Shown in pieces: positions 478 through 53,810 of a DNA stretch of 64,000 nucleotides (within the stretch, counting starts at the first letter, position 1; each line of letters opens with the position of its first letter). Below the pieces are notes generated by a model. It was not told where the DNA came from. It did not search any database and saw only the letters and a list, made by a program, of their open reading frames with translations. This stretch comes from Alphaproteobacteria bacterium. GTDB lineage: Bacteria > Pseudomonadota > Alphaproteobacteria > UBA9219 > RGZA01. The stretch lies in NCBI GenBank assembly GCA_041917755.1, contig JAYRWY010000016.1, forward strand, positions 37,932 through 101,931, given 5' to 3'. The position numbers and the translations under genes are program-made.

Positions 478-569
478 TGGCGGAGGGGATGAGATTCGAA
501 CTCACGATACAGTTTTATCCGTATACACACTTTCCAGGCGTGCGCCTTCAACCACTCGGCCACCCCTCC
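478..569 (-). tRNA. tRNA-Ser (anticodon GGA), type II tRNA with long variable arm, CCA encoded
   Basis: The reverse complement folds as a cloverleaf. Acceptor stem GGAGGGG/CCCCTCC is 7 bp. The D-arm GCC-GAGTGGTTGAA-GGC is typical of Ser. The anticodon stem CACGC/GTGTG carries loop CUGGAAA, so the anticodon is GGA. There is a 6-bp extra arm, T-arm GTGAG-TTCGAAT-CTCAT, discriminator G and CCA. Confidence 0.9.
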
Positions 570-8735: not shown

Positions 8736-8834
8736 GTTAAGCTATTCCTTCCAGAATAGAAGCATTCCGTTGGGGGAATGTGACCCAATTCCAAGACTAA
8801 CAAGGGTTTTGGACATGAGTCAAACAAGAACAAC

Positions 8835-45971: not shown

Positions 45972-46790
45972 TTAGCGTCTACCTGCCACAGCTGCCTGCG
46001 TATCAGGGCTATCATTCACATCTTCGTCGACGCCATCATAGAGCGGGTCTTGTGAATTGCCAGATGGCTGCTGGGTCTGGTTGTGTGGCTGATATTCCAC
46101 CGGACGCTGGCCTTGTTGTTGGTCATAACCAACTTCGTTGCCGCGGTTATCGGGGTTACCATAACGCTGCTGGTTACGGTTGCCGAAATCACGGTTATCA
46201 CGTTGACCGTCCTGGCGTCCACCTTCGCGACTTCCATCGCGTTGGTTATTACGATGATCACGCCCGCCATTATGGCGGCGATATTGCTGATCATTGCCCT
46301 GCTGGCCTTGCGACTGACCATCTTGGCCATTTGCGTAGGCGCCATCTTGGCTTGGCTGGCCGTCTTGGCCTTGTTCGCCGCCCAATGACTGACCTTGTGG
46401 CTGGCCATCATTATATGCTGATGGCTGGGGTTGGCTTTCCCATGAGGCTTGGCGCGCGCGTTGTTCGGCTGCGGTTGCTTCGTTAATTGCTTCAATAATA
46501 CGGTAATAATGTTCGGCGTGCTGCAGATAGTTTTCTGCCAATACGCGGTCACCCGATGACAAGGCATCCTTGGCTAACGCTTGGTATTTTTCATGAACCT
46601 GAAATGCATTGCCACGCACACGCATATCTGGGCCGTTGCTGTCAAATATCTGGTTGCGCAGCGATGTTGCTGAACGCTGACCCTGTTGGCCACCTTGTCC
46701 TTGGTGATTACGGTGCTGACCACCATTTCCTCCACCATGACGATTATCATTGCGACGTCCACCGCGGCGTTGGCCTTGACCTGGTCTCAT
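45972..46790 (-). CDS. Gln/Gly/Arg-rich low-complexity protein with a conserved DUF4167-like domain
   Basis: Ordered block RNQIFDSNGPDMRVRGNAFQVHEKYQALAKDA...AENYLQHAEHYYRI, flanked by long Q/G/R/N/D repeats. Confidence 0.55.
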   Translation of the reverse strand: MRPGQGQRRGGRRNDNRHGGGNGGQHRNHQGQGGQQGQRSATSLRNQIFDSNGPDMRVRGNAFQVHEKYQALAKDALSSGDRVLAENYLQHAEHYYRIIEAINEATAAEQRARQASWESQPQPSAYNDGQPQGQSLGGEQGQDGQPSQDGAYANGQDGQSQGQQGNDQQYRRHNGGRDHRNNQRDGSREGGRQDGQRDNRDFGNRNQQRYGNPDNRGNEVGYDQQQGQRPVEYQPHNQTQQPSGNSQDPLYDGVDEDVNDSPDTQAAVAGRR

Positions 46791-47026: not shown

Positions 47027-48589
47027 TTAACCAAATGGATGGGCAAGAATTAATTGCCAAATTGGCGGCGCTTTAAGAATAAACAGCATGGCCACATAAA
47101 TAATCATCACCACAATACCGGCAATGATTCCCACCCCGCCCGCACTTTGCGAGACAACTTTTTCGCTGCTTCCCAATTGCCGCTGCAATGATTTGGCCGC
47201 CACTATACGTAGTAAATAATTTTGTAAAAAATATCCGCCGATGCATAGCCCTATATCAAACACCAGCACTGCAATCGGTTTTATTTTTTCCATCAACATC
47301 ATACGAATACCGGATGAAATAATACCGTAATCAAGCGCAACAAATAATATGACGGATACTGCCGCCGCGATGATACGTACCAAAATGGTCTGGCTATGCA
47401 CTAGTTTACGCATCACATCCAGTATACGCTGCGCCATATCCAGCGATAGTCCGGTGGCATATAATTGCCGCAACATTTTCGCATCCGCATTCTTGATTTG
47501 TAATAACCCGAACGCTTCGCGGCAAACACGTAACTCTAATGCTTTGCCCAGCGTATCCGGTTGCTTCATATTCGCTTCAAACTGGCTGATTTTTTCTTGC
47601 ACTGCGGCATCAATAAAATTGGGCAAATCAATGATCACGCATTTATGCCCTAACAAGGAACATTTCATTGGCTTACCGTTTATGCGCACACGCATTTCGG
47701 CGTAAGGCATAACAGCGGTATAGGGGATATAAGGCTCGCCATTTTCCTTAAATGCCAATTCCTGCGATGAAATCGTCGCATGCCCCTTGGCTAATGTTTT
47801 CATACCCGCCCGTGCAATCGCTTTGCGGAAACCTCCGGGCAATCCATCACTTTGCGATATAAAAAATTCAGCCTTGGCGGTTGGCATCACATTCACTTCT
47901 GTTGTGAATAATCCATTTCCGCCACACGTTGTGCATTTGGTTCGCCCTTGTCCGCGGCATTGGTTACACACGGTTTGTCGTTGTCCGCGGCATTCGCGGC
48001 AATGTATCTGCCGGTTACCATTGCAGTAATTACAGTATTGCTCGGGATTGGTATTGTTTAATCCTGTACCACCACACCCGGTGCACATCTCGAAACCGGT
48101 TTCACGGCATAAATAACACGCAACATATCCTGTTGAATGACATCCGGTACATGCAATGTAACTACTACCATTGCATCCTGTGCATGGCACATCGGAATAA
48201 TAGGTGTGCGTCAAACTATCCAGAACAACATCCGCTTTTTCAAGACCCCAACCCTGCCCCGGCTCTGCCTTTAACTGGCGCGCGGCATCCTTGCTCCAGT
48301 AATTTCCGGTTTCCGCTTTGGTTTTCAGTTCCTTGATTTTCTCCTGCATCTCGCGGTCATTGGCTACTTTTTCATAGCGGCCTTTGGGCAACCCTTTGAT
48401 GTTTTTAAATGCTCCGGGATAGGATGCAGTCTCGCGCCCCATATCAAATTTCATATTCATTTGCGCATTGACGGTCAGCGTCGTTTCATCGCTGCCCAGC
48501 AATTCGATTTTATTGACATCTATACCATTACCATCCGCGCAGGATTTGATTTTGGCAAACGCCTCATGCGTGAGCTTATGATCAGTCAT
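47027..48589 (-). CDS. Hypothetical membrane-anchored protein with two complete DnaJ-type cysteine-rich zinc-finger modules (8 CxxC repeats). C-terminal 3-TM region.
   Basis: First module CTGCNGSS...CTGCHSTG...CYLCRETG...CTGCGGTG. Second module CNYCNGNR...CRECRGQR...CNQCRGQG...CTTCGGNG. Three hydrophobic helices at the C-terminus. The ATG lies 8 nt inside the upstream gene's end. Confidence 0.6.
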   Translation of the reverse strand: MTDHKLTHEAFAKIKSCADGNGIDVNKIELLGSDETTLTVNAQMNMKFDMGRETASYPGAFKNIKGLPKGRYEKVANDREMQEKIKELKTKAETGNYWSKDAARQLKAEPGQGWGLEKADVVLDSLTHTYYSDVPCTGCNGSSYIACTGCHSTGYVACYLCRETGFEMCTGCGGTGLNNTNPEQYCNYCNGNRQIHCRECRGQRQTVCNQCRGQGRTKCTTCGGNGLFTTEVNVMPTAKAEFFISQSDGLPGGFRKAIARAGMKTLAKGHATISSQELAFKENGEPYIPYTAVMPYAEMRVRINGKPMKCSLLGHKCVIIDLPNFIDAAVQEKISQFEANMKQPDTLGKALELRVCREAFGLLQIKNADAKMLRQLYATGLSLDMAQRILDVMRKLVHSQTILVRIIAAAVSVILFVALDYGIISSGIRMMLMEKIKPIAVLVFDIGLCIGGYFLQNYLLRIVAAKSLQRQLGSSEKVVSQSAGGVGIIAGIVVMIIYVAMLFILKAPPIWQLILAHPFG

Positions 48590-49433
48590 CGCATTCCCCG
48601 ACCATCACACGTGTGGGGTTTGGTTCCCCAAATCCCGGAATAGGAATTAAATCCGATTTCACAAAACTCGGTTTTTTCAGGACAATTTTTTCACGCACCG
48701 CCTGCTTGGGCACTGGGCGCGCATAAACCTGCTTGCTCACCTCAATTAACAAGACACCGGCAAGCCCGGAAAAAAACACATCACCCTGCTGTTCAATCCA
48801 ACTCTCATAGGGCTTAAGCCAACGCGTGGCAAACGGTGGCATATATAATGCGCGGTTATGCCGCTCTACCTGAAACCCATGATGGGTCAAAATACGCCGG
48901 ATATGCGGCAATGAAAACGAAAAGCCAAATCCAAATGGCGTGCGCGCATCGCGTGCCCACCATCCACTACGGTGTGGCACCATAATAATCATCCGGCCAT
49001 TACTGGTCAGCACGCGGCCCATTTCCTGTAACACATCACCGATGTGTTCAGTATTTTCCACCATATGCATCATCAAGATACGATCCACCGAATGGTCAGG
49101 AAGCGGCAGATAGGTTTCTTCGGTTAAACTCGTCAGGTTCGGGCCACCGCGTGGCCACCACGTAATACCTTGCTGCGCAGGCATGAACGCCATCACGCGC
49201 GCCGCTTCATTTAAAAACGGACGAAGATAGGGCGTGGCATATCCCATACCCAATAATGTTTCACTGGAAATATTCGGCCACAGTTTGCGCACACTACCGC
49301 GCACCAATCGTTGCGCCAGCTGGCCCAGATCGCTTTCATAAAATTCGCGGAGATCAACTACATCAGGATACATGCGGGTGAATTCTAAAACAGATAAGTT
49401 AATGAGGTATGAGAAAAATCCACCTCCCAACAC
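48582..49433 (-). CDS. Putative class I SAM-dependent methyltransferase-like protein
   Basis: Rossmann-like LLGMGYATPYL ... VDRILMMHMVE ... NGRMIIMVP pattern. GTG at 49433 or ATG at 49373. Its 3' end overlaps the next gene's start by 8 nt. Confidence 0.5.
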   Translation of the reverse strand: MLGGGFFSYLINLSVLEFTRMYPDVVDLREFYESDLGQLAQRLVRGSVRKLWPNISSETLLGMGYATPYLRPFLNEAARVMAFMPAQQGITWWPRGGPNLTSLTEETYLPLPDHSVDRILMMHMVENTEHIGDVLQEMGRVLTSNGRMIIMVPHRSGWWARDARTPFGFGFSFSLPHIRRILTHHGFQVERHNRALYMPPFATRWLKPYESWIEQQGDVFFSGLAGVLLIEVSKQVYARPVPKQAVREKIVLKKPSFVKSDLIPIPGFGEPNPTRVMVGECDD

Positions 49434-49451
49434 CCTGATTTACCTGTATTT

Positions 49452-49925
49452 TTATAACGCCTGCCGTTGCACATAGGCCAATTCTACAACCCGCAGCATT
49501 TCGCTCCATACATTCAAGGAACGCAGCTCCGGCATGGTAATCCACCGCGCATCAGTCACATCACTGGCGGGCGCAGCCTCGCCGCTTTCCCACTGCGCAT
49601 TCACTTCCACAATGCTGTAATGGTACATGACCTTTTGTTGCTCATCGCGCGTGATGCCATCAATCGCGGTGATAATCGCAAATGGTTTGATGACTATTCC
49701 GGCTTCTTCGCGCGCTTCGCGTATGGCGCATTCAAAGAATGTCTCGCCCACTTCTTGCGCACCGCCAATTAATCCCCACTGCCCCATGCCCGGCGGTTTA
49801 CCGCGCCGGATAATCAATGTTTCATCAACACCATTATTTTTACGCCACACCACAACGCCAATGGCTGGCCAAGGCTGTGTGGGATAGCGACGCAGCTCCA
49901 TCTTACGCCATATACTGGCCGCCAT
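49452..49925 (-). CDS. NUDIX hydrolase
   Basis: Nudix box GGAQEVGETFFECAIREAREEAGI. Confidence 0.85.
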   Translation of the reverse strand: MAASIWRKMELRRYPTQPWPAIGVVVWRKNNGVDETLIIRRGKPPGMGQWGLIGGAQEVGETFFECAIREAREEAGIVIKPFAIITAIDGITRDEQQKVMYHYSIVEVNAQWESGEAAPASDVTDARWITMPELRSLNVWSEMLRVVELAYVQRQAL

Positions 49926-50625
49926 TGATGGTCAAAGTAGAACCGGTGATGAAGGCAGCATCATCGCTCACTAGGAACTTCACGGCTCTGGCGATTTCCT
50001 GCGTACGACCAAGACGACCCACCGGAATACGCGCAATAATTTTTGACAGAATGGATTGCTCAACGGACTGAACCATCTCAGTGTCAATATAACCTGGCGC
50101 AATCGCATTTACCGTAATGCCTTTGCTGGCTGTTTCCAGCGCCAATGACTTAGTAAAACCAACCATACCCGCCTTTGCAGCAGCATAATTGACCTGACCA
50201 AATTGCCCTGCCTGTCCATTGATGGAACCGATATTTACAATTCGGCCAAAGCCACGCTCACGCATGCCGTTGATGACGGCGCGCGACATGCTGAACACCG
50301 ATGTCAGGTTGACGCGAATGACTTCGTCCCACATTTCATGGGTCATTTTATGAAGCGGTGTATCACGCGTGATACCCGCATTGTTCACCAAAATATCAAT
50401 TGGCCCGAATTCTTTGGTGATTTCATCAACATGGGTCTGGCAAGCAGTAAAATCACCCACATCCCATTTACGAACTGCGATACCTGTCTTGGTGCTAAAT
50501 GCCTTGGCGCGCTCATCATGCGCTGCGTAATTGGCTACCACCGTATATCCCGCTTCTTTAAGTGCGACTGAAATCGCTTCACCGATACCACGAATACCAC
50601 CTGTAACAACTGCAACTCTTGCCAT
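49903..50625 (-). CDS. phaB: Acetoacetyl-CoA reductase (SDR)
   Basis: VAVVTGGIRGIGEAI, catalytic YAAAKAG. Adjacent to phaA and phaC. A GGAATAGGAA RBS precedes the ATG. Confidence 0.88.
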   Translation of the reverse strand: MARVAVVTGGIRGIGEAISVALKEAGYTVVANYAAHDERAKAFSTKTGIAVRKWDVGDFTACQTHVDEITKEFGPIDILVNNAGITRDTPLHKMTHEMWDEVIRVNLTSVFSMSRAVINGMRERGFGRIVNIGSINGQAGQFGQVNYAAAKAGMVGFTKSLALETASKGITVNAIAPGYIDTEMVQSVEQSILSKIIARIPVGRLGRTQEIARAVKFLVSDDAAFITGSTLTINGGQYMA

Positions 50626-50660: not shown

Positions 50661-51836
50661 TTATTTTTCAATGCACAACGCAACGCCCATGCCGCCGCCA
50701 ATGCACAATGTGCTCAGGCCCTTCTTGGCATTTCTGCGTTCCATTTCATGCAGCAACGTAATCAATACACGTGCGCCCGATGCACCAATGGGGTGTCCCA
50801 ATGCAATGGCGCCGCCATTTACATTCACACGTGATGTATCCCAGCCCATTTCTTTATTTACCGCAGCTGCTTGCGCGGCAAAGGCTTCATTGGCTTCAAT
50901 CAAATCCAGATCCTGCACATTCCAACCTGCACGCTTTAATGCAAGGCGGCTTGCAGGAATAGGCCCCGTACCCATCAACGCAGGATCAACACCGGCGGTT
51001 GCCCATGATGCAATGCGGCCCATGATTTTCAATTTACGCTTACTGGCTTCTTCTTCGCTCATCAACACCAATGCAGCCGCGCCATCATTAATGCTCGATG
51101 CGTTACCTGCGGTCACCGTGCCATCTTTTACAAAGGCAGGCTTGAGTTTGGTGAGCGCTTCCAGCGTGGTGCCATGACGTGGATTTTCATCCGTATCAAC
51201 AACGCGGTCGCCCTTCTTTTCTTTAATAGTCACTGGCACGATTTCGGCTTTGAATTTGCCTTCCTTCATCGCGGCTTCAGCCTTGTTTTGTGATGCCAGC
51301 GCAAATGCATCCTGGGCATCACGGGTGATTTGATATTGCTGGGCCACGTTTTCCGCGGTTTGGCCCATATGGTAGTTGTTATAGATATCCCACAATCCGT
51401 CCTTAATCATGGTATCGACCATTTCGCCGCTACCCATGCGCACACCGTAACGCAACATCATCGCGTGCGGTGAAAGGCTCATGCTTTCTTGGCCGCCTGC
51501 CACCACAATATCGGCATCGCCTGATAAGATGCTTTGCATGCCCATCGCAACAGCGCGCAAACCCGAGCCGCACACTTGGTTGATGGTGAGTGCAGTTTTG
51601 TCATAAGGAATACCTGCAGCAACGGCTGCTTGGCGCGCGGTGTTTTGTCCCTGCGCAGCCGTGAGCACATGCCCCATTACTACATCGTTGACTTCTTCTG
51701 CTTTTACTCCGGCACGAACTAATGCTTCCTTGATTGCAATACCGCCCAACTGAACCGCAGGCACAGATGACAAGGCGCCAGCAAATGAACCAATGGCTGT
51801 ACGAACACCCGAAACAATAACAACAGATTTTGACAT
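50661..51836 (-). CDS. phaA: Acetyl-CoA C-acetyltransferase (beta-ketothiolase)
   Basis: Thiolase signatures: Cys in [12 protein letters not shown], and [19 protein letters not shown] at the C-terminus. Confidence 0.93.
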
Positions 51837-51892: not shown

Positions 51893-53248
51893 TTACTTAG
51901 AAGCAAGCCAGCTAAAAAGCGCAGGCCATAATTTATCTCGCGCTGCCGCATTGACCATCATGCTGATATGGCCGAATTCCGGCTCTAAAACCGCTGGCTC
52001 TAAAACCTTAGATAAAGCAGATGCTTGGCGCATCCCCGCCGCCAAGGCCTTGGCACTGGCGGGCGGAACGATTTTGTCATTCTGTGGAATAACATGCAGG
52101 CTGGGCAGTTTAATGTCCTGCGGGCGTATGGCTTTGCCCAAAACCCGCCATGCGCCCTTGGCTGGGGTATTATCGATATACCAGCCCTGTAAACAGGTAG
52201 CAGCCACCTTTCCGGTCAATGGTACGCCCTCATTCACCCAATCTTCGATAAGGACGAAAGCCCGTTCCTCTGTACTGCGCGGTTTCATGCCCGCAAAGCG
52301 GATAAATTTATCAAGCAAGGCAAATGGCTGCAGGCTAATGAAAAAACACTGCAACACATCCACCGGTAATTCGCCCTGTTGTTCCAACATCGGCTCTATT
52401 TGCGGCAACATTTGCTTTACGCGCGCGGCTTGCTCGCGCCCCATCACATCGCCATGAAAATCCCAAGGGGTTGCTAAAAACATAATACTGCGGATGGCGT
52501 CACTGGCATGCGCTGCCAATGCCGCCGCCAGTAATCCGCCCATGCAATAACCAATCACATGCACTTTCCCGCCCGCCATGTTCTTGGCAAGGTTGAGCAC
52601 CGGAAATAACCGCTTGGCCAAATAATCATCAAAGGTAAAGCCGGCCTCGTCTTTGCCCGGCACATCCCAATCAATCAATAATGGACGAAAACCGGTCTTG
52701 GCTAATTCACGCACGAAGCTTTGTTGCTGATCAATATCCAGTACATGATAGCGGTTGATGAGCGATGGTATAACCAGCACAACCGGTTTTTTGCTGTCTT
52801 TTTTGTGTGAAAAATCAAGCACCCGTGTGGTACCCGCACGCCAAATCACGGGCGGCTCCTTGATGTCACGCGAAATGGCACTGCTGCGATAACGCGTCAA
52901 CGCATCAAGAAAGATTTTGTATTGCGCCGAAGATAGACGATGCAACGCATCATCAAAGCATTCACCGGCTGATTTATTTTTGGGTTGCCTGTTTGACGCG
53001 CTTAACTGCAGCCACTGCTGGTGAAGCTGCTTTCTTTTTTCGCGCAGATTTTTTGGCAGCTGGCTTTCCAGCTCCTTCAAATTCGGTAAATCGTTTCTCA
53101 AGATCTGCGAGACGGCTGGCAAGTTGAGCCACAGCATATGCGCTAGCGCCAGATAAAGCGGAAGCGGCCGCGGACCTATTCTCAGTTCGGCCTTGGCCAA
53201 AGCTGGGGCTAAAACTGGTTCCCGTTGTGCTTGCGGTTTTTTTCTCAT
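51893..53248 (-). CDS. phaC: Poly(3-hydroxyalkanoate) synthase PhaC. The start is uncertain because of the 275-nt overlap with the upstream ORF.
   Basis: Alpha/beta-hydrolase with the PHA-synthase lipase box variant GYCMGG (Cys nucleophile) and a LIDWDVPG region. phaCAB order. Confidence 0.8.
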
Positions 53249-53654
53249 CCTGTCTATCGGAAGCTCCCTTGGTATTCATATTGGCAGCTTTGCCCAATTG
53301 TTCCAACATCATCAGCCAGATGTCCATTCCGCCTGAAAATAATGGCGTAAACATCTGTGAAATCTGCGGTGACATCAACTTGGCGGCAGGCTCCATAACC
53401 TTGCTCATGTCCTTCATCGCATCGGGATTGTTCAGAAAATGGGATAGCTGCTCGCGCCACAAATCCAGGGTCTGACGTGCAAGGCTATCGTAACCGAATG
53501 CATCCGCGCTGAATGCTTCTGCTTTGCGTTTTGCGCCCGCACTCTTTTCGCTCCCGTTTTTATCATGGACAGTTTTTTCGTGTGCGCTTTTTTCCGGCGC
53601 AGCCTTTTGTTCAGGAGACATTTTTTTGCGTGATGCCGTTTTGGTGCGGGACAT
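52974..53654 (-). CDS. Phasin-like / PHA-granule-associated protein with a Lys/Ala-rich histone-like tail
   Basis: ATG at 53654 has a strong AAGGAGG RBS. A coiled-coil region precedes the C-terminal [28 protein letters not shown] tail. The 3' end overlaps phaC. Confidence 0.5.
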   Translation of the reverse strand: MSRTKTASRKKMSPEQKAAPEKSAHEKTVHDKNGSEKSAGAKRKAEAFSADAFGYDSLARQTLDLWREQLSHFLNNPDAMKDMSKVMEPAAKLMSPQISQMFTPLFSGGMDIWLMMLEQLGKAANMNTKGASDRQDEKKTASTTGTSFSPSFGQGRTENRSAAASALSGASAYAVAQLASRLADLEKRFTEFEGAGKPAAKKSARKKKAASPAVAAVKRVKQATQK

Positions 53655-53810
53655 TTGGCCTCCTTTTTGCTTCTCAGCTTTTATGCGTGGTGCATCTCTA
53701 TGATACAGCAGGACAATTTTCTGCTGTTGCGAAAACACTGCATAAGGATTAAACTACCTCCATCGTGTGTTCAATACCCTTTCGTTCATACAGTTATAAT
53801 GAAGGTCGAT

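Follow-up and report, generated by a model that had tools for sequence, protein, structure and literature searches.

DnaJ-type cysteine-rich proteins that lack the J domain have been studied mainly in plastids, where they take part in the assembly of Rubisco, the photosystems, and the enzymes of carotenoid metabolism. To our knowledge, every characterized domain of this type, including those of DnaJ, BSD2, OR, LQY1, PSA2, ZnJ6, and Anti-TRAP, is a zinc-stabilized surface for protein-protein interactions. The Rubisco assembly chaperone BSD2 (Pfam ID PF25436, BSD2_CRD; PDB 6ekb), a small soluble protein of plastids, has four motifs and two zinc ions. In the two-rung cysteine-rich domain of DnaJ, a type I Hsp40 protein (PF00684; PDB 1exk), motif 1 pairs with motif 4 and motif 2 pairs with motif 3. 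The plastid proteins LQY1, OR, PSA2, ZnJ6, and CYO1 combine transmembrane (TM) helices with a single four-motif, two-zinc domain, lack the J domain, and function at a membrane as chaperones, assembly factors, or oxidoreductases (PMC7865324 and PMC4806229).

The alphaproteobacterial DNA analyzed here (the window, a stretch of 64,000 nucleotides) encodes a 520-residue protein, referred to below as ZnF, that resembles these plastid proteins in joining TM helices to a DnaJ-type cysteine-rich region without a J domain. Its gene (positions 47027 to 48589, minus strand) was delineated from the open reading frame, a family alignment, and an AlphaFold2 (AF2) model. In contrast to BSD2, ZnF is bacterial and has eight motifs (four predicted zinc ions), large flanking domains, and three TM helices. 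It is predicted to follow the same antiparallel pairing logic as the homologous domain of DnaJ but with four predicted rungs instead of two; it is also membrane anchored and, in Pfam searches, showed no J domain, G/F region, or DnaJ C-terminal domain. The plastid membrane proteins are much smaller than ZnF and plastid targeted, and no sequence relationship between them and ZnF was found outside the cysteine-rich region, leaving orthology unsupported. Another parallel is provided by the Trm112-methyltransferase pairs, in which a class I methyltransferase (MTase) likewise has a zinc-binding protein encoded or acting alongside it. However, the zinc-knuckle protein Trm112 is small and soluble, has one zinc ion, and shows no homology to ZnF, and the adjacency of the ZnF and MTase genes is clade specific, which is a further difference. 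No description of a bacterial membrane-anchored DnaJ-type cysteine-rich protein was found in the literature, in agreement with the original prediction, according to which such a bacterial protein coupled to a methyltransferase and a NUDIX enzyme is not a described system.

The ZnF protein and its family

The cysteine-rich region of ZnF (residues 136 to 226; positions 47912 to 48184, minus strand) contains eight CxxC motifs, at C136, C147, C158, C169, C186, C197, C208, and C219. Three of these (motifs 4, 7, and 8) have the full CxxCxGxG pattern whose repetition marks the DnaJ/BSD2-type domain, and the remaining five keep one of the glycines. In the family alignment, all 16 Cys residues are invariant in homologues with identity down to 23%, and of the 147 full-length representatives of the family, 134 carry eight CxxC motifs, neither more nor fewer, at the same position, followed by two or three C-terminal TM helices. 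Such conservation excludes a chance origin of the repeats. Neither of the two relevant Pfam models, DnaJ_CXXCXGXG (PF00684) and PF25436, matched the window protein at E values up to 0.1; its sole Pfam match was to GRXCR1-2_C, with 17.3 bits against a cutoff of 26. Among 48 family members, the same two models matched 31 and 35 sequences, respectively, at E values of ≤0.05, whereas a J domain with the HPD motif (PF00226) was detected neither in these members nor in the window protein. Searched against the PDB, the family profile matches chains of both DnaJ and BSD2 (1.8e-9 against 1exk), and the predicted fold superposes on a solved cysteine-rich domain. These results establish homology between the region with the eight CxxC motifs and the cysteine-rich domain of DnaJ and BSD2.

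The motifs are spaced by 11, 11, 11, X, 11, 11, and 11 residues, with length variation confined to the central gap. Variants with six motifs lack a motif in each arm, and the variant with 12 motifs is roughly symmetric. Among the top 20 pairs in the inter-arm covariation analysis, 12 fall within an antidiagonal band (p about 7e-5, for a band that was refined after the data had been seen and whose center had been predicted beforehand at 46, with the best fit at 50); no enrichment was seen for any parallel register. Spacing, variants, and covariation all agree with an antiparallel hairpin extended to four pairs. In this arrangement, motif i would pair with motif 9-i, so that the region would form one antiparallel four-rung hairpin with four stacked Cys4 sites, each a probable zinc site, for a predicted total of four zinc ions. 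The original prediction of two complete DnaJ-type modules, each consisting of four CxxCxGxG motifs, holds for the number of CxxC motifs but not for their completeness, and the tandem two-module model was rejected on the basis of the spacing symmetry, the six-motif variants, and the covariation. The two-zinc hairpin thus appears to be extendable rung by rung into a rod with three, four, or six predicted zinc sites.

The cysteine-rich region is preceded by an N-terminal α/β region (residues 1 to 135; positions 48185 to 48589, minus strand), predicted to be cytoplasmic, with the conserved motifs G20-N21-G22 and G113-x-G115. The intervening W114 is invariant only among the closer relatives. It is followed by a β-rich middle region with additional helices (residues 227 to 395; positions 47405 to 47911, minus strand), which contains no Pfam domain and shows conserved F242, P251, K-G-H-A-x-I (268 to 273), P295, G314, and Y377. 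The C-terminal part (residues 396 to 520; positions 47027 to 47404, minus strand) consists of three predicted TM helices at approximately residues 400 to 427, 439 to 466, and 485 to 505, which carry the conserved R405 and D445. These helices, recognized by hydropathy across the family and as long helices in the AF2 model (pLDDT, 85.4), agree with the three-helix anchor proposed originally. The N terminus is hydrophilic, and the positive-inside (K+R) counts are 3.75, 1.10, 4.15, and 1.10. Because of this charge bias, the ladder is placed in the cytoplasm: the data point to an N-in/C-out topology, with the first ∼395 residues on the cytoplasmic side, followed by the three TM helices. A Foldseek search of the PDB with the whole ZnF model returned only noise, with nothing at E values of ≤1e-3, and the N-terminal and middle regions had no recognizable fold match beyond weak similarity to cystatin/NTF2-like folds.

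An exhaustive HMMER search recovered 319 representatives of 50%-identity clusters at E values of ≤1e-30. A word-indexed homologue search, even with a diverse profile, found only 18 relatives, giving the false impression of a small family that was corrected by HMMER, and a metagenome scan with a narrower alignment yielded 19 loci. The clusters looked up come from metagenome-assembled genomes and are annotated solely as "hypothetical protein," the contig of the window carries no annotation, and no whole-protein Pfam or NCBIfam model had a significant match to ZnF. Accordingly, ZnF belongs to a large and so far undescribed protein family that is common in uncultured Alphaproteobacteria, with hundreds of 50%-identity clusters, and yet has no name and no Pfam model.

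Gene neighborhoods of ZnF

In the window, the genes, all in one orientation, follow the order phaC, phaA, phaB, NUDIX, MTase-like, ZnF, DUF4167, dapF, ftsY, and amn, with phaB, NUDIX, MTase-like, and ZnF all transcribed from the minus strand. The acetoacetyl-CoA reductase gene phaB (positions 49903 to 50625, minus strand; TIGR01829, 350.9 bits against a cutoff of 302) serves here as upstream context only. The longest open reading frame of the NUDIX gene spans positions 49452 to 49925; however, the NUDIX proteins of its relatives align from M9, so the start codon was assigned to the ATG at position 49901, which gives a 149-residue protein (49452 to 49901, minus strand) and a spacer of 1 nt after the phaB stop codon. 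Similarly, the longest frame of the MTase-like gene (48582 to 49433) opens with a GTG at position 49433, and the start was moved to the ATG at position 49373 because the MTases of its relatives begin with MYPDVVDL; the resulting 263-residue protein (48582 to 49373, minus strand) is separated from the NUDIX gene by 78 nt. The previously reported 23-nt overlap between phaB and NUDIX and the 18-nt gap between NUDIX and MTase were therefore artifacts of longest-frame starts. By contrast, the 8-nt overlap between the MTase stop codon and the ZnF start codon, ATGACTGA (48582 to 48589, minus strand), can be read directly in the DNA and suggests translational coupling; in the relatives, this junction is an overlap of 4 to 11 nt or a gap of 2 nt. 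The GC content of the genes (0.46 to 0.51) matches that of the flanks, as expected of native DNA, and promoter and terminator scans of the region gave results at the chance level.

The NUDIX assignment is secure (PF00293, 60.2 bits against a cutoff of 21.1), and the intact Nudix box, GAQEVGETFFECAIREAREEAGI, fits the consensus GX5EX7REUXEEXGU. The closest solved structure is the ADP-ribose pyrophosphatase MutT (PDB 4kyx; 2.9e-8), with every NCBIfam equivalog scoring below its cutoff. The MTase-like protein matches Methyltransf_11 (30.9 bits; cutoff, 21.2), although only over profile positions 19 to 95. Its AF2 model (pLDDT, 81; pTM, 0.75) displays a seven-strand Rossmann-like fold and retrieved 1,146 class I MTases from the PDB with Foldseek at E values of ≤1e-3, with 2gs9_A as the top match (E value, 1.4e-11; TMt, 0.70). 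The methyltransferase fold that had been suspected from the sequence is thus supported, and the modeled protein has a class I SAM-dependent MTase fold with an atypical motif I. That motif reads L-G-x-G-Y-A-T-P in the family, where neither the canonical GxGxG nor the acidic post-β2 residue that binds the SAM ribose is found, the site expected for the latter being occupied by an invariant M64-P65-x-x-Q68-G69. Because of these departures, it is uncertain whether the protein binds SAM.

The adjacency of the NUDIX, MTase, and ZnF genes is restricted to 8 of about 35 distinct ZnF loci, all from a single clade, and in these the trio always lies inside a conserved phaCAB-NUDIX-MTase-ZnF-DUF4167-dapF array, in which DUF4167, dapF, and ftsY are equally conserved neighbors. 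Since every locus that keeps the trio also keeps the rest of the array, the trio cannot be separated from general synteny. Its synteny is kept within this clade and absent from most ZnF loci, about 27 of which lack NUDIX, MTase, and pha genes in their vicinity. The ZnF gene is found near uvrA at 12 other loci and in flagellar or heme gene contexts elsewhere, and in one lineage, within a flagellar cluster, its translation is coupled to that of csrA. The possibility that UvrA is a functional partner was rejected, as uvrA is a housekeeping neighbor in one clade, often separated from the ZnF gene by variable open reading frames. The MTase family, in turn, extends far beyond the trio and is paired with gloB, with no adjacent ZnF gene, in three other lineages. 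Hence the trio represents the inherited gene order of one alphaproteobacterial clade and not the dedicated three-gene system envisaged at first, which would have required co-occurrence across the range of the family. Across the compared loci, ZnF is the fastest-evolving member of the array, with 37% identity versus 54 to 82% for its neighbors. A role in anti-phage defense was also considered and rejected: in searches with the PADLOC profiles, ZnF had no match and the NUDIX and MTase proteins had only weak generic ones.

Possible roles of ZnF

As the neighbors of the ZnF gene differ between clades, gene context provides no functional handle. A role in membrane-associated holding or assembly of proteins is proposed by analogy, because the characterized DnaJ-CR-type domains bind proteins. 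By this analogy, ZnF would most likely be a holdase or assembly factor that needs no ATP and uses the rigid four-zinc rod as an arm to bind a client protein, which it would hold or present at the inner surface of the cytoplasmic membrane. In the clade of the window, its translation would be coupled to that of the upstream MTase-fold gene, so that the two proteins would be made together. The plastid DnaJ-like zinc finger proteins, some of them membrane anchored, are chaperones or assembly factors (PMC7865324 and PMC4806229). The complete picture, a clade-inherited locus in which ZnF is a cytoplasmic four-zinc ladder on a TM anchor and works as a membrane-tethered holdase or assembly factor, is given about an even chance of being correct. 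If ZnF does work in this way, bacterial proteostasis would gain a component that is tethered to the membrane and independent of ATP, and the ladder would be available as a modular zinc scaffold of simple design.

The original prediction saw the NUDIX, MTase-like, and ZnF proteins as a functional module cotranscribed with phaCAB and linked to polyhydroxybutyrate (PHB) metabolism. The genes do share a strand and are tightly spaced (1 nt, 78 nt, and the 8-nt overlap), the order phaA-phaB-NUDIX-MTase-ZnF persists where ZnF is only 35 to 37% identical, and the MTase and ZnF genes continue to overlap or to lie no more than 2 nt apart. Nevertheless, such a module is improbable, given the equal conservation of DUF4167, dapF, and ftsY at the same loci, the many ZnF loci devoid of all these genes, and the occurrence of the MTase family beside gloB without ZnF. 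Furthermore, Pfam and NCBIfam searches found no PHB-specific motif or family match in any of the three proteins. The string and its proximity to phaCAB reflect inherited order and provide no evidence for a PHB-linked pathway. The same lack of adjacency outside the clade bears on the idea that, within it, ZnF is a membrane scaffold or activator of the MTase-fold protein, comparable to the zinc-binding Trm112, whose binding activates class I MTases. An MTase with an atypical motif I and without the acidic ribose-binding residue might need a partner, and the start/stop overlap is conserved over a range of 35 to 100% ZnF identity; the Trm112-MTase complex 6f5z is also among the structural neighbors of the MTase model, but that match reflects the MTase fold only. 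With most ZnF genes located away from this MTase gene, and the MTase retained next to gloB in genomes with no adjacent ZnF, this relationship is unlikely.

Two further alternatives concern the cysteine ladder itself. The 16 Cys residues might make ZnF a thiol-disulfide oxidoreductase or might serve as a redox or zinc switch, as reported for the plastid membrane proteins LQY1, CYO1, and ZnJ6, in which case oxidation would release zinc and alter activity or signaling at the membrane. The domain class does include members with oxidase or protein disulfide isomerase-like activity (PMC7865324), and ZnF has sixteen invariant, predicted cytoplasmic thiols close to the respiratory membrane. However, it has no thioredoxin-like domain, output domain, or conserved regulatory neighbor, and the strict symmetry and covariation of the ladder indicate a structural rod, making a switch rather improbable as well. 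It is very unlikely that ZnF, tethered to the membrane, acts like Anti-TRAP or an anti-sigma factor by sequestering a soluble regulator: the matches of 7 of the 48 members to the Anti-TRAP Pfam family can be expected of any DnaJ-CR-like sequence, the coupling to csrA within a flagellar cluster is limited to a single lineage, and no regulator gene is a conserved neighbor.

A bolder version of the holdase or assembly reading would make the ZnF family a new class of bacterial inner-membrane chaperones or assembly factors, built on a rigid, modular zinc ladder of three, four, or six rungs in different members; in the clade of the window, ZnF would have the atypical MTase-fold protein as an obligate partner and recruit it to the membrane; we regard this version as a long shot. 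Two observations sit uneasily with any holdase reading. The conserved intramembrane R405 and D445 hint at a membrane role that goes beyond anchoring, and the fast evolution of ZnF relative to its neighbors (37% versus 54 to 82%) is unusual for a core chaperone.

Cysteine-rich core of the ZnF family

The 520-aa protein encoded at positions 47027-48589 of the minus strand (here termed ZnF) carries eight CxxC motifs, beginning at C136, C147, C158, C169, C186, C197, C208, and C219. A word-indexed search retrieved only 18 relatives; an exhaustive HMMER search over 1.84 billion cluster representatives yielded 5641 matches at E ≤ 1e-3, of which 1279 passed 1e-10 and 319 passed 1e-30, the best of them mostly full length (500-580 aa). 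As anticipated in the original prediction, the repeats are conserved: all 16 Cys residues are invariant in 17 relatives, at identities down to 23%, as well as in a 30-sequence alignment of the Cys-rich region. Exactly eight CxxC motifs are found at the same position in 134 of 147 full-length representatives, with two or three hydrophobic helices C-terminal to them. Every member looked up is a hypothetical protein without a name, from a metagenome or MAG labeled as Alphaproteobacteria, Rhodospirillales, or Pseudomonadota. Neither Pfam nor NCBIfam contains a whole-protein model for ZnF, and the searchable literature, Pfam, and NCBIfam yielded no membrane-anchored DnaJ-CR-like family from bacteria with this architecture. 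These proteins constitute a sizeable uncharacterized family that so far lacks a cultured host, with a neat structural twist. The domain class itself is already known; what is new is the ladder of four rungs (stacked predicted Cys4 zinc sites, each made by one pair of CxxC motifs), together with the domains that flank it and the membrane anchor.

The Pfam profile PF00684 gave no match to the window protein at E ≤ 0.1, and the sole Pfam match of that protein, GRXCR1-2_C, was below threshold. Among 48 diverse family members, BSD2_CRD was matched by 35 (best E, 1e-7), DnaJ_CXXCXGXG by 31 (best, 2e-6), GRXCR1-2_C by 20, and Anti-TRAP by 7. A profile of the Cys-rich region alone retrieved the CR domain of Escherichia coli DnaJ (1exk, 1.8e-9) and also DNAJA3 (2ctt), DnaJ (6jzb), and BSD2 (6ekb, 7.9e-5). 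Together, these Pfam and region-profile matches support the homology of the ZnF Cys-rich region to the DnaJ/BSD2 cysteine-rich domain, so that the DnaJ-type nature ascribed to these cysteines holds at the family level, though the window protein misses PF00684. According to Pfam, the J domain is absent from the window protein and from the 48 members.

DnaJ and BSD2 are two-rung forms of the same hairpin, whereas the ZnF family has four predicted rungs, with variants of three or six. The family motif spacing is (11,11,11,X,11,11,11), with variation confined to the central gap, from 14 to 23. Six representatives (P0095, P0107, P0127, P0137, P0164, and P0165) carry six CxxC motifs with the spacing (11,11,X,11,11), one motif missing on each side of the center, and the single twelve-CxxC representative, P0036, is roughly symmetric too. 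The number of rungs thus appears to vary (3, 4, or 6 predicted Zn) roughly symmetrically about the central loop, which suggests that the hairpin may grow and shrink through paired gain and loss of motifs. If the region were two independent four-motif modules, neither could afford to lose a motif; a single antiparallel hairpin, with predicted rungs 1+8, 2+7, 3+6, and 4+5, would explain all the variants. Independently of the spacing argument, covariation was analyzed in 153 non-redundant sequences using mutual information with APC correction. The antidiagonal band 46-55 holds 12 of the 20 top inter-arm pairs against a background of 19% (binomial p ~7e-5, with the band width fixed post hoc). The best band is centered at 50, compared to 46 predicted from the Cys positions, and no enrichment in the parallel register was seen among the inter-arm covarying pairs of these 153 sequences. 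The top covarying pair, E-R, corresponds to E167-R198 in the window protein. Spacing symmetry, the six-motif variants, and antidiagonal covariation all favor a single hairpin over the two complete DnaJ-type modules proposed originally, and the four CxxCxGxG motifs attributed to each module reduce to complete motifs at positions 4, 7, and 8 of the eight.

Neighboring enzymes and gene order

The protein encoded directly upstream of ZnF (MTase; window positions 48582-49373, minus strand) scores 30.9 bits against Methyltransf_11 (cut-off, 21.2; profile positions 19-95). Its structure model (pLDDT 81, pTM 0.75) gave 1146 matches at E ≤ 1e-3 and matches class I SAM-dependent methyltransferases (best, 2gs9_A, 1.4e-11, TMt 0.70), so the predicted methyltransferase-like Rossmann fold stands. 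The family keeps an atypical motif I, L-G-x-G-Y-A-T-P, and, at the site expected to hold the acidic residue that binds ribose, an invariant M-P-x-x-Q-G; because of both features, SAM binding is uncertain. This family, widespread in Alphaproteobacteria (among them Thalassospira, Dongia, and Stellaceae, with 42-49% identity), may comprise atypical or pseudo-methyltransferases with a glyoxalase-related role. The next protein is a NUDIX hydrolase, as predicted (PF00293, 60 bits), with an intact Nudix box and a resemblance to MutT/ADP-ribose-pyrophosphatase-type enzymes (4kyx, 2.9e-8); none of the NCBIfam equivalogs reaches its cut-off.

The array phaR, phaC, phaA, phaB, NUDIX, MTase, ZnF, DUF4167, dapF, ftsY, amn is intact in relatives whose ZnF is 65-77% identical. 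It is largely kept in the deeper lineages L019/L020 and L023/L024 (ZnF, 35-37% identity; MTase, 59-60%), where MTase and ZnF either overlap by 4 nt or lie 2 nt apart. Within the array, ZnF evolves fastest: identities between the window and L019 are 37% for ZnF, 54% for NUDIX, 58% for dapF, 60% for MTase, 65% for phaB, and 82% for phaA.

In a survey of 43 ZnF loci (~35 distinct), the NUDIX-MTase-ZnF string was found in 8 of the distinct loci. Another 12 have uvrA upstream of ZnF, one to three ORFs away, sometimes with ychF and yebC downstream; all three are housekeeping genes. One lineage has a translationally coupled csrA-ZnF-flhB-C-like arrangement within a flagellar cluster (fliE, flgC, flgB, fliQ, fliR, and flhB): at L016:5693-7817 (also L017:3834-5958), the distant ZnF homologue P0018 (25% identity) overlaps both of its neighbors by 4 nt: csrA on the upstream side and, downstream, an 87-aa FlhB-C-terminal-like gene (Bac_export_2). 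Another lineage has a dienelactone hydrolase gene upstream and convergent hemJ-hemH-hemE, and the remaining loci share no neighbors. A different, canonical class I methyltransferase (VIDIGGGSG motif) is encoded divergently upstream of ZnF at L007:5125-5826 (minus strand), a distant locus; by clustering it falls outside the window MTase family, and its adjacency to ZnF is probably a coincidence. In Thalassospira and two other lineages (L021, L046, and L047), the gene paired with MTase is a divergent gloB (hydroxyacylglutathione hydrolase), and no ZnF gene follows MTase; phaCAB lies just upstream in one of the three. PADLOC detected no defense-system signature.

Given the presence of the string in only 8 of ~35 loci, the co-conservation of the whole array, and the MTase-gloB pairing, the trio represents a clade-specific inherited gene order. 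The predicted synteny is therefore retained in one clade (8 loci), with an overlapping or near-abutting MTase/ZnF junction, and is absent from the other loci. On the whole the original observation and its domain assignments stand, but the suggested coupled system linked to PHB finds no support, since the trio is inseparable from the larger inherited array and MTase occurs elsewhere with gloB and without ZnF.

Membrane topology and possible function

In 48 ZnF members, the stretch before TM1 carries on average 3.75 Lys and Arg residues and loop 2-3 carries 4.15, against 1.10 in both loop 1-2 and the C-terminal tail. These counts and the hydrophilic N terminus locate residues 1-395, and with them the ladder, in the cytoplasm and not the periplasm, the two sides considered originally; this location is consistent with zinc-thiolate sites. 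As judged from sequence, ZnF is shown to be a cytoplasm-facing protein, anchored by three TM helices, with a DnaJ/BSD2-type predicted-zinc hairpin of four rungs as its conserved core. Arg405 in TM1 is kept in 96% and Asp445 in TM2 in 85% of the 48 members; these residues (47027-47404, minus strand) suggest that the TM region may do more than anchor the protein passively.

Characterized members of the DnaJ-CR-type domain class, to which Anti-TRAP also belongs, bind proteins via the zinc-stabilized hairpin. DnaJ binds substrates, and BSD2 holds an assembly intermediate of the Rubisco large subunit. OR, LQY1, PSA2, and ZnJ6 work at membranes, with roles in chaperoning, assembly, or thiol oxidoreduction (PMC7865324; PMC4806229). 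The hairpin of ZnF would likewise serve as a protein-binding surface, and the likeliest role of ZnF would be that of a holdase or assembly factor, tethered to the membrane and independent of ATP, although for the function alone this assignment is held with rather low confidence. ZnF might instead sequester a regulator. It might also be a redox or zinc switch, or an oxidoreductase. A Trm112-like partnership with MTase would apply in the window's clade only, within which the MTase/ZnF translational coupling is real. None of these readings, the holdase included, is favored by the genomic context, which varies.

Gene layout and start sites

All genes of the run are on the minus strand, and their GC content of 0.46-0.51 throughout agrees with the native origin proposed. 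ORF calls and domain searches place a phaC-like gene at 51893-53248, phaA (ORF call) at 50661-51836, phaB (TIGR01829, 351 bits) at 49903-50625, and DUF4167 (Pfam match) at 45972-46790; farther downstream come dapF, ftsY, and an AMP-nucleosidase-like gene. The longest NUDIX and Methyltransf_11 ORFs span 49452-49925 and 48582-49433, respectively, from which a 23-nt phaB/NUDIX overlap and an 18-nt NUDIX/MTase gap had been read; both follow from longest-ORF starts that lack support among homologues. NUDIX homologues start at Met9 of the window ORF, which moves the start to ATG 49901, one base past the phaB stop, and MTase homologues start at MYPDVVDL, corresponding to ATG 49373, a 263-aa protein, and a 78-nt gap. 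The 8-nt overlap of the MTase stop and the ZnF start is read directly in the window as ATGACTGA. Promoter and terminator scans gave signals no better than chance.

The phaC-like ORF (451 aa) has alpha/beta-hydrolase matches and a weak, subthreshold PhaC_N match. At its longest, it overlaps the upstream ORF 52974-53738 (minus strand), which encodes a 254-aa A/K-rich protein without a Pfam match; this ORF, flanked by the phaR-like gene and phaC, is placed like a phasin gene. The DUF4167 protein, with its very long Q/G/N/R-rich low-complexity tails, is the conserved downstream neighbor of ZnF in the syntenic clade (gap, 236 nt). The only Rfam matches at gathering level within the 64-kb window are a serC leader (RF00517, 47 bits) at 8737-8790 (minus strand), which precedes a 402-aa ORF, and a single tRNA at 481-569 (minus strand).
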